Positions 7,564 to 49,928 of a stretch of DNA of 64,000 nt are shown here, in pieces; within the stretch, counting starts at the first letter, position 1, and each line of letters begins with the position of its first letter. The notes under the pieces were generated by a model, which was given only the letters and a program-made list of their open reading frames with translations, did no database searches and was not told the DNA's origin. Made by a program: the position numbers and the translations under genes. This stretch comes from a virus. The stretch covers positions 1-64,000 of the IMG/VR virus record IMGVR_UViG_3300020420_000008; one strand, 5' to 3'.

Positions 7564-7840
7564 TATGATACGAGCAAAGATAAAAGAGGACATGAATATG
7601 ACAGTTCCCTTATATCTCATGATGTCTTATGCTTACTACAAGCAAGATAATCCTATCGCTGAAGATGGTACTTTTGATTCTATAGCAAAACTACTTTTAG
7701 AAAATTATGATACGATAGAACATCATCACAAAGAATTAATAAGCAAAGATAGTCTGAAAGCTGGTACATATCTAGGAGTATATCCAACGATAGTTAAAGA
7801 TACAGTAGAAATGGTGAGAAAAAAATATTTAAAAGGTTGA
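7553..7840 (+). CDS. Stand-alone domain resembling domain Ia of NAD+-dependent DNA ligase
   Basis: SYAYYKQDNPIAEDGTFD resembles LigA Ia Y.YY..D.P.I.D..YD. Confidence 0.6.
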   Translation: MLDSMIRAKIKEDMNMTVPLYLMMSYAYYKQDNPIAEDGTFDSIAKLLLENYDTIEHHHKELISKDSLKAGTYLGVYPTIVKDTVEMVRKKYLKG

Positions 7841-46731: not shown

Positions 46732-47396
46732 CGTTTACTCATTTAGGAATCGACATACCTGAAATTAACACTGAAACAATAGATGGTAAAAGATACTATG
46801 TAACACCTACAGGTGAGAAGTATCCATCTATAACGACAGTATTAGGGCATTTCAATAAGAAAGCTATTTACGAGTGGAGACAAAGAGTTGGTGAAAAAGA
46901 AGCTAACAAAGTCTCCACTCAAGCATCACGCCGAGGCACTAAGGTGCATCAGATGTGTGAAGATTTTATCAACAATGAACTTGATGAAAAGAAGTTCATG
47001 CCTTCTGATAGAGAAACTTTTAGCACTATAAAAGATACACTCTCCGAGAATATAAATAATGTTAGAGTTCAAGAAGCTACCCTTTATTCAGATTATTTAA
47101 GAGTCGCTGGACGGGTAGATTGTATCGCTGAGTGGAATAATAGGCTTTCCGTCATCGACTTTAAGACTTCCAGAAAACTTAAAAAGAAAGAGTATATTAC
47201 GAATTATTTTCAACAAGGTTCTGCCTATTGTGTTATGTATGAAGAAAGAACAAAAACACCAATCGATCAAGTTGTAATAGTCATAGCAGTAGATGGTGAA
47301 AGTCCTCAGATATTTATAGAAAAGAGAGACAACTGGATACTATCTACACAAAAAAAGATAAAATTATATGGAGAATATTATGATAAAATATCTTAG
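46728..47396 (+). CDS. PD-(D/E)XK exonuclease
   Basis: YPSITTVL, RGT.VH, AGRVDCIA, IDFKTS, Q..AY. Confidence 0.88.
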   Translation: MTFTHLGIDIPEINTETIDGKRYYVTPTGEKYPSITTVLGHFNKKAIYEWRQRVGEKEANKVSTQASRRGTKVHQMCEDFINNELDEKKFMPSDRETFSTIKDTLSENINNVRVQEATLYSDYLRVAGRVDCIAEWNNRLSVIDFKTSRKLKKKEYITNYFQQGSAYCVMYEERTKTPIDQVVIVIAVDGESPQIFIEKRDNWILSTQKKIKLYGEYYDKIS

Positions 47397-47754
47397 TTTA
47401 TTAGTGTTTATGTTATATGTTAGTTGTGGCACTATGTCGTGGGGCGATCATCAACCTTTATTAGAATCACGACACAAAATGTTTGAAAAAGGCGAAACAA
47501 CAAATTCACAAAAACCAGTTGTATGTCAGCACCCTGATTTAATTTTACATACACTTACACAAGACTGGCAAGAAGCACCTATCATGAGATGGGATAATGT
47601 CTCTGTACGTGAGAATGGTGAATTAATGAATACTACAATAGGATTTGGTTTAAATAAACAAACTGGCACATGGAGTTTAGTAGAGTTTATAAGTGAAGAT
47701 TGGGCTTGTATTATAGCGAATGGTTGGGGATTTACAGTTTTTACACCAGAATAA
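47380..47754 (+). CDS. Exported hypothetical protein
   Basis: Signal-like N-terminus, KPVVC...ACII. Confidence 0.6.
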   Translation: MIKYLSLLVFMLYVSCGTMSWGDHQPLLESRHKMFEKGETTNSQKPVVCQHPDLILHTLTQDWQEAPIMRWDNVSVRENGELMNTTIGFGLNKQTGTWSLVEFISEDWACIIANGWGFTVFTPE

Positions 47755-47772
47755 AATAAATAAAAAAAGTAC

Positions 47773-47804
47773 TTGACGAATCACGAATCAATATGCTATA
47801 AATA
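47773..47804 (+). promoter_or_regulatory. Promoter of the RNA cluster with tandem CGAATCA and an overlapping late promoter
   Basis: TTGACG; CGAATCA at 47777 and 47784; TATAAATA 47797-804. Confidence 0.75.
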
Positions 47805-47807
47805 AAG

Positions 47808-48146
47808 AGTTCGTTGAGACTAAGATGAAACTAGACTGGACATGGGGGCGGTACCCATCACCTCCACCAAGAGTACTTGCTCAGTACAACGCCTTCGTAG
47901 CTTCACAAGAGACAGTTCTTGAGACAGTTCGATGAAGACAAGAGTGGTAAGACACTTTAGAGTTTTTTGATAGTGGCGTATCAACAAGTATTCCTGTGGG
48001 GGTGAAATAGGATCGACAGGTAGGTAGTAGGTTAGTGGAGAACATTAAACTAAATGCAAACGATGATTTTGCACCTGTGGATTACGCACTAGCGGCTTAA
48101 TCGCACCGAGTTTAGAGAGTGTACTTGGGAACAGAAACACTCTCAC
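47808..48146 (+). ncRNA. ssrA: Circularly permuted two-piece tmRNA (alphaproteobacterial type); outer ends approximate
   Basis: Acceptor piece ends CACCTCC-A-CCA (47869); coding piece starts GGGGGTGAAATAGGATCGAC (47998); G3.U pair; tag ANDDFAPVDYALAA* at 48056-48100. Confidence 0.92.
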
Positions 48147-48153
48147 AGAATTT

Positions 48154-48227
48154 GCGAGTGTAGTATAATGGCATTATTTCTAGTTACCAACTAGAAGACA
48201 GAGGTTCGAATCCTCTCATTCGCTCCA
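48154..48227 (+). tRNA. tRNA-Gly(ACC)
   Basis: GCGAGTG/CATTCGC acceptor stem, TCTAG-TTACCAA-CTAGA anticodon arm, AGAGG-TTCGAAT-CCTCT T arm, U73, encoded CCA; 74 nt. Confidence 0.88.
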
Positions 48228-48229
48228 AG

Positions 48230-48458
48230 TTTTACTCCGACGGGAGTAAAAGTGGTGCAAGGAAGAGTCCTGATGACAAGAGGGACAAACTTGACTACTT
48301 AGGGGTGGTACCCAGGATTTGAAAAACGAATACTTAGAAATAAGGGCTAGTTTAACAAGTTCACATCATCATACCAGATGAAAGTAGGTTCTGGCATAAA
48401 TGGAAGATATGCTATCTTGTGATGTCAGTTGAGGGTAAAAGCGAGTCCCTCCCACACT
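48230..48458 (+). ncRNA. Unidentified structured RNA
   Basis: No ORF in track, multiple stems, lies between the tRNA and a terminator. Confidence 0.6.
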
Positions 48459-48464
48459 AAATTT

Positions 48465-48500
48465 AAAAAGGTATTAGAAGCAGTTCTGATACCTTTTTTT
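48465..48500 (+). terminator. Rho-independent terminator
   Basis: AAAAAGGTATTAGAA-GCAG-TTCTGATACCTTTTTTT. Confidence 0.85.
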
Positions 48501-48502
48501 AT

Positions 48503-48510
48503 TATAAATA
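48503..48510 (+). promoter_or_regulatory. T4-type late promoter
   Basis: Intergenic TATAAATA. Confidence 0.7.
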
Positions 48511-48593
48511 CTAGTAGATTGTATTATATCATTACGTATCGTGACATTTAAGATTGTTTCATTATAATCGTTTTAATTAGTCAAGGTAAAGTA

Positions 48594-49088
48594 ATGATAG
48601 ATCCAATATCAGCAATGGCTGTAGCAGGCACCGCATTCTCAGCAATCAAGAAAGGCATACAACTAGGTAAAGATGTAGAGTCTATGTATGGTGATATAGG
48701 TAGATGGATGGGTGCAATCTCTGATGTTAATCAGGCAGAGAAGAATGCAAAGAATCCGCCATTCTATAAAAAGGTGTTTAGTGGTTCATCGATAGAAGAA
48801 GAGGCTATGAATGCCTTTGCCGCCAAGAAAAAGGCAGAGGAGATGGAATATGAACTGAAACAATATATTATGTTTACACATGGGGCATCTGCATGGGACG
48901 AACTGATTCGTATGCAAGGTAAGATACGTAAAGAACGTCAAGAGATGATTTATGCAAGAGAAAAGCAAAGAGAAAAAATAGTTAATATTATCATATGCAC
49001 TATAGGTATAGGAATTATAGTAGCACTACTAGGTTGGTTCGCATGGTTCGTTTTTCAAACAAGTTACTTATTCGCAGGCTTTCGCTAA
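48594..49088 (+). CDS. Membrane-anchored hypothetical protein
   Basis: MIDPISA..A..AF..IKKG, C-terminal TM. Confidence 0.75.
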   Translation: MIDPISAMAVAGTAFSAIKKGIQLGKDVESMYGDIGRWMGAISDVNQAEKNAKNPPFYKKVFSGSSIEEEAMNAFAAKKKAEEMEYELKQYIMFTHGASAWDELIRMQGKIRKERQEMIYAREKQREKIVNIIICTIGIGIIVALLGWFAWFVFQTSYLFAGFR

Positions 49089-49465
49089 TACTTTCAATAA
49101 AAATAATTTTACTGTTAATCTTTCTCATTCCAAATTATGCCTTTGGACGTGAGGAACGTAAACAACCTGATAACATCATACAATGCTTTTCTTGTTTTTT
49201 CAAGAAGTTCAGCGACTGGACATGGGAACAAGAAAAAAGACTGGGTAAGAGAGAAGATCCTAAGTATATAACATGCAGACGATATAAAAGAAAAACAGCG
49301 AAGAATGGACAACAAGTTTGTATATACAAGGGTGCAAACAGTACATATACATTGGTAGTTGAGGGGCAATGTCCTAGCGAATACCGATGTAAATATGATC
49401 CTCATGGTTCTGAACCTAATATTGATAGTGTGGTTGACTCGTTAAACGATAAGTTTAAAAAATAG
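48995..49465 (+). CDS. Cys-rich exported hypothetical protein (true start probably downstream)
   Basis: Signal-like stretch, CRR...CIYKGAN...CP.EYRC. Confidence 0.55.
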   Translation: MHYRYRNYSSTTRLVRMVRFSNKLLIRRLSLILSIKIILLLIFLIPNYAFGREERKQPDNIIQCFSCFFKKFSDWTWEQEKRLGKREDPKYITCRRYKRKTAKNGQQVCIYKGANSTYTLVVEGQCPSEYRCKYDPHGSEPNIDSVVDSLNDKFKK

Positions 49466-49467
49466 AC

Positions 49468-49496
49468 TTGACAAATAAACAACAATCATATAGAGT
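49468..49496 (+). promoter_or_regulatory. Sigma70-type promoter (leaderless geometry)
   Basis: TTGACA-N17-TAGAGT; ATG 6 nt later. Confidence 0.6.
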
Positions 49497-49502
49497 ATAA
49501 GA

Positions 49503-49928
49503 ATGATATTAGAAACAGCATTTTTGTGTCTAGCACTCAATACTTATCATGAGGCAAAAAATCAATCCATGGTAGGACAGATTGCAACGGCACAAGTAGT
49601 CATGAACCGTGTTGCAGATAAAAGATATCCTAACACAGTTTGTGAAGTAGTTAAACAAGGTCCAAAGTATAAAGGAAGCAATGTACCGGTTCGACACCGA
49701 TGCCAATTTAGCTGGTATTGTGACGGCAAAGATGACATGCCTAAAAATGAAAAAGCATGGAAAAAAGCACAAGACTATGCACATCTTGTTTTATATAATA
49801 GAATATACATAGATGTCACAGAGGGTGCTACACACTATCATGCAACATATGTAAAACCTGCATGGGCTAAAACAAAGACTAGAACAACAAGAATAGAAAA
49901 ACATATTTTCTATAGATGGGAAAAGTAA
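49503..49928 (+). CDS. SleB/Hydrolase_2 cell wall hydrolase
   Basis: CLALN.YHEA, V.NRV, YP.TVC.VV.Q, CQFSW.CDG, GATHYHA.YV.P.W, HIFY. Confidence 0.92.
   Translation: MILETAFLCLALNTYHEAKNQSMVGQIATAQVVMNRVADKRYPNTVCEVVKQGPKYKGSNVPVRHRCQFSWYCDGKDDMPKNEKAWKKAQDYAHLVLYNRIYIDVTEGATHYHATYVKPAWAKTKTRTTRIEKHIFYRWEK

Follow-up and report, generated by a model that had tools for sequence, protein, structure and literature searches.

A glycine tRNA with the anticodon ACC in marine T4-like phages: an accessory gene and a candidate reader of GGU codons

Why tRNA-Gly(ACC) is shunned across all three domains of life is an open puzzle of tRNA biology, and the presence of a gene for such a tRNA in a marine virus raises the question of whether its adenosine at position 34 is genuine, whether selection maintains it, and what the resultant tRNA might do. 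The rarity of this anticodon in cells, which an earlier note on the locus had taken as established, is stated in three published accounts (PMC6720975, PMC4928997, PMC11066159), and it has been argued that the anticodon loop of glycine tRNAs cannot accommodate A34 (PMC4928997). No report of a phage tRNA-Gly(ACC) was found in the open-access literature searched, and an earlier report may exist elsewhere. Phage tRNAs as such are ordinary; a naturally selected and recurrent tRNA-Gly(ACC) is not.

The gene lies in a window of 64,000 nucleotides, the whole stretch of DNA analysed, taken from IMG/VR record IMGVR_UViG_3300020420_000008 (positions 1–64,000). The whole virus record (G000) comprises 146,609 bases, is about 76% complete, and has a G+C content of 35%. 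Its source is a marine T4-like phage of Melnitz/pelagimyophage-like type; searches for the host with gp32 and with 8 kb of DNA gave no discriminating result; to judge from the phage group, SAR11 or OM43-like bacteria are candidates.

The tRNA gene and its adenosine at position 34

ARAGORN called a single tRNA in the window, a tRNA-Gly(acc) on the plus strand at 48154–48227, which is also the sole tRNA of the 146.6-kb record. The 74-nt gene matched Rfam RF00005 at 60.7 bits (gathering threshold 29), and direct reading agreed with both programs in bearing out the intact cloverleaf, ACC anticodon, U73 and encoded CCA that had been described from the sequence beforehand. A 7-bp acceptor stem starting G1-C72, C2-G71 and G3-C70 is accompanied by a D-loop AAUGGCA containing the GG pair, a 5-bp anticodon stem closed by the loop U-U-A-C-C-A-A, a variable region of 4 nt, and a T-loop UUCGAAU on a 5-bp T stem, with the core bases U8, A14, G18-G19, T54-psi55-C56 and A58 all in place. 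As read from the sequence, the anticodon occupies 48186–48188 on the plus strand, with A34 at 48186 within the loop TTACCAA (48184–48190), followed by the discriminator U73 at 48224 and the CCA at 48225–48227. A four-arm cloverleaf was recovered by ARAGORN, by Rfam, and by the pairing conserved across seven ACC tRNAs, and in structure matches bacterial-type elongator tRNA-Gly species. Under E. coli-type rules, glycine identity resides in U73, the first three acceptor pairs, C35 and C36, a set that is complete here and invariant across the aligned ACC lineages. The minimum free energy fold given by ViennaRNA, in which an 8-bp anticodon stem had U32-A38 and U33-A37 paired, was rejected as an in-silico artefact of folding without tertiary contacts.

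Further copies were sought using a pattern in which the tRNA body was fixed while position 34 and the stem were left open, and the same body was found in five further IMG/VR contigs and one ENA record; a match in a JGI metagenome proved to duplicate one of these five IMG/VR contigs, and was not counted twice. With the window's own record included, A34 was present in 7/7 independent contigs, all of which carried an invariant TTACCAA loop. Contigs from two independent sequencing runs, mapped onto the locus, gave the same result: that from run X3 covered 48171–48286 with no difference from the window, and that from run X5 carried four stem changes and kept A34. Position 34 was A in every copy among the seven contigs and the two runs, and the anticodon was never read as GCC or TCC, so the support at 48186, which the earlier note had listed among its checks, extends well beyond the window; the gene is real, and A34 is not an artefact of assembly or sequencing. 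Contigs from RNA runs X15 and X20 miss the tRNA, which carries no information on its expression, as contigs cannot show absence and standard RNA-seq captures tRNAs poorly. A scan of IMG/VR for the exact anticodon arm with any base at position 34 returned eight matches, all of them chance palindromes and none a tRNA, the stem sequences of the relatives being different. IMG/VR contig L008, a chance match, carries at 7663–7746 a tRNA called as tRNA-Cys with the anticodon ACA, and hence A34 in a two-codon box.

The copies comprise three stem haplotypes, with a fourth in run X5, distinguished by pair 28-42 (C-G to U-A) and pair 30-40 (A-U to G-C), positions 26 and 44 being variable too. Selection was assessed in three genomes whose flanking DNA differed at 17.1% of sites: outside the anticodon arm, none of 62 columns varied (P = 8.7e-6 at the flank rate), as against six of the 12 columns when positions 26 and 44 were taken together with the anticodon stem. 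These six consisted of two compensatory pairs together with positions 26 and 44, pairing was preserved in every change, and the seven loop bases exhibited zero variation. When seven distinct ACC glycine tRNAs were aligned, 140 of 140 pair cells were standard and 12 of the 20 pairs were compensatory, both sides having changed; shuffled and slid controls came nowhere near this support for pairing. The tRNA is under selection for a decoding-competent fold in which ACC itself is conserved; a loop that never changes, identity elements that are all retained and stem changes that compensate each other argue for selection on a tRNA able to decode, and not merely on a cleavable fold.

An RNA-rich neighbourhood and an accessory allele

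Immediately upstream of the tRNA lies a permuted two-piece tmRNA (ssrA; 47770–48145, plus strand) with the tag ANDDFAPVDYALAA and a tag ORF at 48056–48100, recognised by Rfam RF01849 (89.1 bits), by RF04321 (85.3 bits) and by ARAGORN; 8 nt separate it from the tRNA, and its homologue in phage Melnitz is annotated as SsrA. In RNA run X20, contigs covered 47749–47899 and 47984–48134 separately with the intervening segment absent, a pattern visible in contigs only and faintly suggestive of the two mature tmRNA pieces. A manA RNA motif (48233–48460, plus strand; Rfam RF01745, 68 bits against a gathering threshold of 55.2) begins 5 nt past the tRNA, and is followed by a terminator-like hairpin of 15 pairs at 48465–48498, extending with its T run to 48508 on the plus strand, a match to a consensus scan only. 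A consensus scan also placed a strong promoter-like site after this hairpin, ahead of the next ORF. Given the 8-nt and 5-nt spacing, the terminator-like hairpin and the promoter-like site that follows, the tmRNA, tRNA and manA RNA look like one RNA-only transcription unit closed by the hairpin. The surrounding genes (PhoH, a PD-(D/E)XK nuclease, a cell-wall hydrolase, a gp33-like late coactivator, gp59 and gp32) are ordered as in Methylophilales phage Melnitz, where the slot past the tmRNA is occupied by a glutamine riboswitch and no tRNA, in contrast to the tRNA and manA RNA of the window (PMC9004378). Among the genes of Melnitz is one for tRNA-Arg(ACG), the tRNA on which TadA classically acts (L230 1501–1577; MZ577097.1 74645–74718), so that the tRNAs of this phage group presumably depend on the A34 deaminase of the host.

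Within 80 loci recovered via the flanking nuclease, the tRNA was confined to the closest clade (94–97% protein identity), more distant relatives possessing the tmRNA without the tRNA. Even in this clade the gene is accessory: in the close relatives L016, L017 and L020, blastn homology to the window stops at 48152 and resumes at 48230, and the segment 48153–48229 is represented by about 6 nt. The tRNA-less junction was also encountered in sequencing runs, as a joint and a loose end in X5 and X3, and both alleles occurred together in single samples. The tRNA-less relatives retain the tmRNA and the manA RNA, and comparison across the closest clade revealed no neighbouring gene that co-varies with tRNA presence. 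As to conservation among relatives, on which the earlier note had made its reading depend, the anticodon fared better than the gene, A34 being kept in all copies found and the gene itself being missing from L016, L017 and L020; any benefit that the tRNA brings would therefore be conditional.

Since the outgroups have no tRNA, its presence is probably a derived gain, the letters at the junction being ambiguous between gain and loss and outgroup absence being the sole support for gain. The trees of both flanks, from a comparison of window 47200–49600 with L011–L020, had tRNA-plus and tRNA-minus contigs interleaved with full support. The upstream flank of the window groups with L015, L016 and L017, and the downstream flank with L012, L013 and L096 (both 100/100). 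Interleaving of the alleles, and the placement of the window's two flanks in different clades, show that the alleles are being shuffled by recombination and indicate a breakpoint within or close to the RNA locus; an individual tRNA gene is able to behave as an allele, present or absent, that recombination redistributes among members of the same phage population. Between the tRNA-plus and tRNA-minus alleles, compensatory differences are found in the first hairpin of the manA RNA.

Glycine tRNAs with ACC in related phages

The best GenBank phage matches to the window tRNA were T4-like tRNA-Gly genes at 77–80% identity, the nearest body with a base other than A34 was likewise only 77–80% identical, and the window's own body was not found among the cultured phages in GenBank. 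The T4-type tRNA-Gly(UCC) of Tevenvirinae and Kyanoviridae resembles it in its length of 74 nt, a D-arm of the form GTATAATGG.ATTA, the loop TT.CCAA, U73 and an encoded CCA, but differs in that every copy of the window tRNA has A34 and not U34, and in that G10 pairs with U25 instead of C25. The window tRNA is most likely derived from such a T4-type phage tRNA-Gly, whose anticodon is normally UCC. Searching the 3' half of the tRNA across 185,579 bacterial and archaeal species genomes recovered three unrelated tRNA-Arg genes only, and hence no cellular source at that stringency.

Among the matches listed, the T4-type tRNA-Gly genes of IMG/VR comprised 70 unique sequences (55 U34, 8 C34, 4 G34 and 3 A34), and a full scan of IMG/VR for the A34 form of the T4-type body yielded 10 contigs in four lineages. 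Each of these ACC lineages is 77–93% identical to a UCC tRNA, as against 59–77% to the other ACC lineages. The three lineages other than the window's are also Melnitz/pelagimyophage-like, with the gene adjoining head genes, adjoining the DNA polymerase, or near an exonuclease. In contigs L140 (10922–10999) and L218 (834–911), a tRNA to which ARAGORN could assign no amino acid (anticodon given as 'ct' or 'tctc', implying an anticodon loop of unusual size) lies ~750–800 nt from the tRNA-Gly(ACC).

A further body was found in the cultured Pelagibacter phage HTVC008M, whose sole tRNA is a tRNA-Gly(ACC) at KC465899.1 91140–91213 (L227 1501–1574). This gene is unannotated in GenBank, the phage is listed with 0 tRNAs in a published survey (PMC7029224), and published counts of pelagimyophage tRNAs are too low. 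Like the window gene, it belongs to a pelagimyophage-like genome with no other tRNA, is 74 nt long, and has the glycine identity set and the loop TTACCAA. It differs in its body, with a rewired elbow, a D-loop devoid of GG and the T-loop GAGCGTTAC; in its site, between cobS and the S21 gene; and in existing in a GCC form too. In IMG/VR (L241–L270), this odd-elbow type was represented by GCC in 17 contigs and by ACC in 12, with three distinct sequences overall, and its occurrence in both forms implies that this phage group repeatedly keeps one GGY tRNA with either G34 or A34.

The survey of related phages that the earlier note had proposed thus produced at least five unrelated tRNA-Gly(ACC) bodies, located at different genome sites in Melnitz/pelagimyophage-like phages. 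That note had anticipated neither this recurrence of A34, nor the accessory state of the gene, nor its RNA-only setting. To judge from these comparisons, the ACC anticodon is convergent and has arisen repeatedly in related ocean phages; that the same anticodon evolved several times makes it most likely that the tRNA helps to read GGU, the favourite glycine codon of the phage. Natural selection has preserved an intact tRNA-Gly(ACC) in five or more independent lineages of abundant ocean phages, which may offer a natural test case for why it is avoided elsewhere. Since one lineage is available as a cultured pair (HTVC008M on Pelagibacter HTCC1062), charging, the A34 or I34 status and decoding are all measurable in a natural system.

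Comparable tRNAs are otherwise found in settings of a different kind. An engineered tRNA-Gly(ACC) and an orthogonal tRNA(ACC), likewise with the anticodon ACC, are described as charged, active in elongation and reading GGU best (Boren 1993, as relayed in PMC11066159 and PMC4928997), but these are laboratory constructs, whereas the window tRNA is a natural gene under selection. The Mycoplasma tRNA-Thr(AGU) and the yeast mitochondrial tRNA-Arg(ACG) also place A34 in a family box, where misreading of the third position is synonymous (PMC11066159), but they serve in minimal sets with one tRNA per box, whereas the phage tRNA presumably supplements a full host set.

Codon use, the wobble base and competing explanations

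A marked codon bias exists in the phage: GGT makes up 60% of its glycine codons genome-wide (2012/3366) and 59% in the window, in agreement with the dominance previously noticed by eye. It accounts for 4.56% of all codons, ranks fourth in use, and as a U-ending family-box codon (2012) is far ahead of ACT (1236), GCT (1163) and GTT (1089), with much of the load residing in giant glycine-rich ORFs at 66–100 kb. A 362-aa ORF (G000 82021–83109) is 32% glycine, and several ORFs of 1000–2000 aa (G000 70915–99663) are 10–12% glycine. The GGT share of glycine codons averaged higher in A34 contigs than in U34 contigs (0.59 vs 0.50; one-sided p = 0.027), a difference between 5 and 45 phylogenetically non-independent contigs that hints at a codon match. 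The U34 (UCC) relatives themselves use GGT for ~50% of glycine codons, so that the anticodon is not predictable from codon matching by itself. The proposal that the tRNA is matched to a GGU bias consequently held in part: the rank of GGT among U-ending family-box codons, the GCC versions that serve as sole tRNA in the group and the higher GGT of A34 contigs favour it, and the bias of the U34 relatives does not.

To our knowledge, bacteria read GGU solely through the G:U wobble of tRNA-Gly(GCC). Bacterial tRNA-Gly(UCC) has an mnm5U-type wobble base and is not known to read GGU, whereas most other family boxes are served by cmo5U tRNAs, which do read U-ending codons; with an mnm5U-type tRNA-Gly(UCC), just one wobble-reading tRNA would be left for GGU. 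The presence of U32 renders glycine tRNAs more discriminating than C32.

We consider it reasonably probable, with appreciable room for doubt, that host GlyRS charges the tRNA, that A34 stays unedited, and that GGU is read through a Watson–Crick pair. The tRNA would probably share a single RNA-only transcript with the tmRNA and manA RNA of the phage, from which RNase P and 3' processing would release it. Charging of the released tRNA by host GlyRS is to be expected, since the tRNA possesses all known bacterial glycine identity elements; position 34 is not read by GlyRS, and a tRNA-Gly(ACC) accepts glycine and functions in elongation (PMC4928997). A34 would most likely remain unedited because the loop differs from that of a TadA substrate at positions 32 and 36: U33, A34, C35, A37 and A38 are common to the window tRNA and bacterial tRNA-Arg(ACG), while the substrate loop C32 U33 A34 C35 G36 A37 A38 is replaced by U32 U33 A34 C35 C36 A37 A38. 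The TadA of E. coli shows high specificity for ACG and the loop around it, with inosine detected in only 3/15 A34 anticodon variants (PMC11066159), and no CDA-fold deaminase is encoded in the 146.6-kb record. Unmodified A34 would then read GGU by a Watson–Crick A:U pair, plus some GGC; in published work, an ACC tRNA showed a slight preference for GGU over GGC and could read GGG too (PMC11066159), and molecular dynamics suggested that A34 destabilises (human) tRNA-Gly anticodon loops (PMC4928997). Taken together, the loop, the literature, the codon bias and the deaminase-free record lead us to read the gene as a supplementary Watson–Crick reader of GGU, adding capacity for the most used family-box codon of the phage in a manner that may be useful yet dispensable. 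That A34 is specifically favoured in the single tRNA of phages infecting streamlined ocean bacteria, this being the one A34 tRNA of a family box that cellular life shuns, either for strict and fast GGU reading or as an escape from a host factor acting on G34 or U34, is a more tentative proposition that we regard as doubtful; under it, the fast-changing anticodon stem would represent ongoing tuning or an arms race.

An account in which the tRNA replaces host tRNA-Gly, either cut by an anticodon nuclease or lost in phage degradation of host RNA, would make A34 and the fast-changing stem the marks of a poor nuclease substrate; resistance to host anticodon nucleases had also been raised in the earlier note. 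Phage tRNAs with anticodon-loop changes do escape tRNases (PMC10264068), host tRNA loss acts as resistance in marine Synechococcus (PMC11726456), A34 recurs within one phage group, and the concentration of variation in the anticodon stem (6/12 columns vs 0/62 elsewhere) is suggestive. We nevertheless judge it unlikely: the stem changes are simple pair-preserving substitutions of the kind expected of an unconstrained helix, GCC and ACC versions coexist in the sister HTVC008M-type lineage, tRNA-less close relatives persist in the same samples, and the literature searched yielded no glycine-specific anticodon nuclease. The position of the gene, 8 nt past the tmRNA and 5 nt ahead of the manA RNA inside an apparent RNA-only unit, together with its dispensability in close relatives, would also fit a passenger, either costless or serving as punctuation at which RNase P and 3'-end cleavage separate the two neighbouring RNAs, with ACC as a tolerated mutation of UCC. 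That explanation is improbable, since the invariant loop, identity elements and compensatory stem changes point to a decoding-competent tRNA, the other ACC lineages occupy unrelated sites without a tmRNA, and the tRNA-less relatives keep both the tmRNA and the manA RNA.

Conversion of A34 to inosine by host TadA, or by an unrecognised phage enzyme, would extend reading to GGU, GGC and GGA, which together constitute 98% of the glycine codons. The five loop bases common to this tRNA and the TadA substrate (U33, A34, C35, A37 and A38) are compatible with it, the tRNA-Arg(ACG) of Melnitz implies that phage tRNAs of the group probably meet host TadA, and extra A34 tRNAs are edited in some bacteria (PMC11066159, PMC13249217). 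With U32 and C36 in place of C32 and G36, and a record without a CDA-fold deaminase, this outcome appears quite improbable; in E. coli, inosine was detected in only 3/15 A34 variants and editing was abolished when position 32, 37 or 38 was altered (PMC11066159), and tRNA-Gly(ACC) is poorly edited even by eukaryotic ADAT (PMC4928997). Least credible of all, and in our estimate very improbable, is a role outside the ribosome in which Gly-tRNA(ACC) feeds a Mom-like DNA-modification transferase, the anticodon keeping the tRNA off the ribosome. The cloverleaf and elbow are fully canonical, in contrast to the deformed tRNAs among Mom-associated RNAs, no neighbouring gene co-varies with tRNA presence, and the neighbouring ORFs include no aminoacyl-tRNA-dependent transferase family. 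Matches to Mom (PF25680), FemAB (PF02388) and Acetyltransf_6 (PF13480) were likewise absent from the 146.6-kb record, which leaves a donor role unsupported; with the record only about 76% complete, this does not prove that such a transferase is absent.

Apart from tRNA supply, part of the choice among glycine codons is set by avoidance of GGTC and GGCC. ATA constitutes 52% of the isoleucine codons of G000, from which a tRNA-Ile gene is absent. As a result of short-motif avoidance, GGT and GGC almost never precede C, GGA being used there instead. The avoidance looks like that of restriction sites, which would be odd if the host is SAR11, a group said to carry restriction-modification systems rarely (PMC7029224). 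Across G000 this avoidance is extreme: CGCG was observed 0 times against 109 expected, and the other avoided motifs were GGCC (0.07), GGTC/GACC (0.12), GCWGC (0.08), CGWCG (0.06) and GGATG (0.18).
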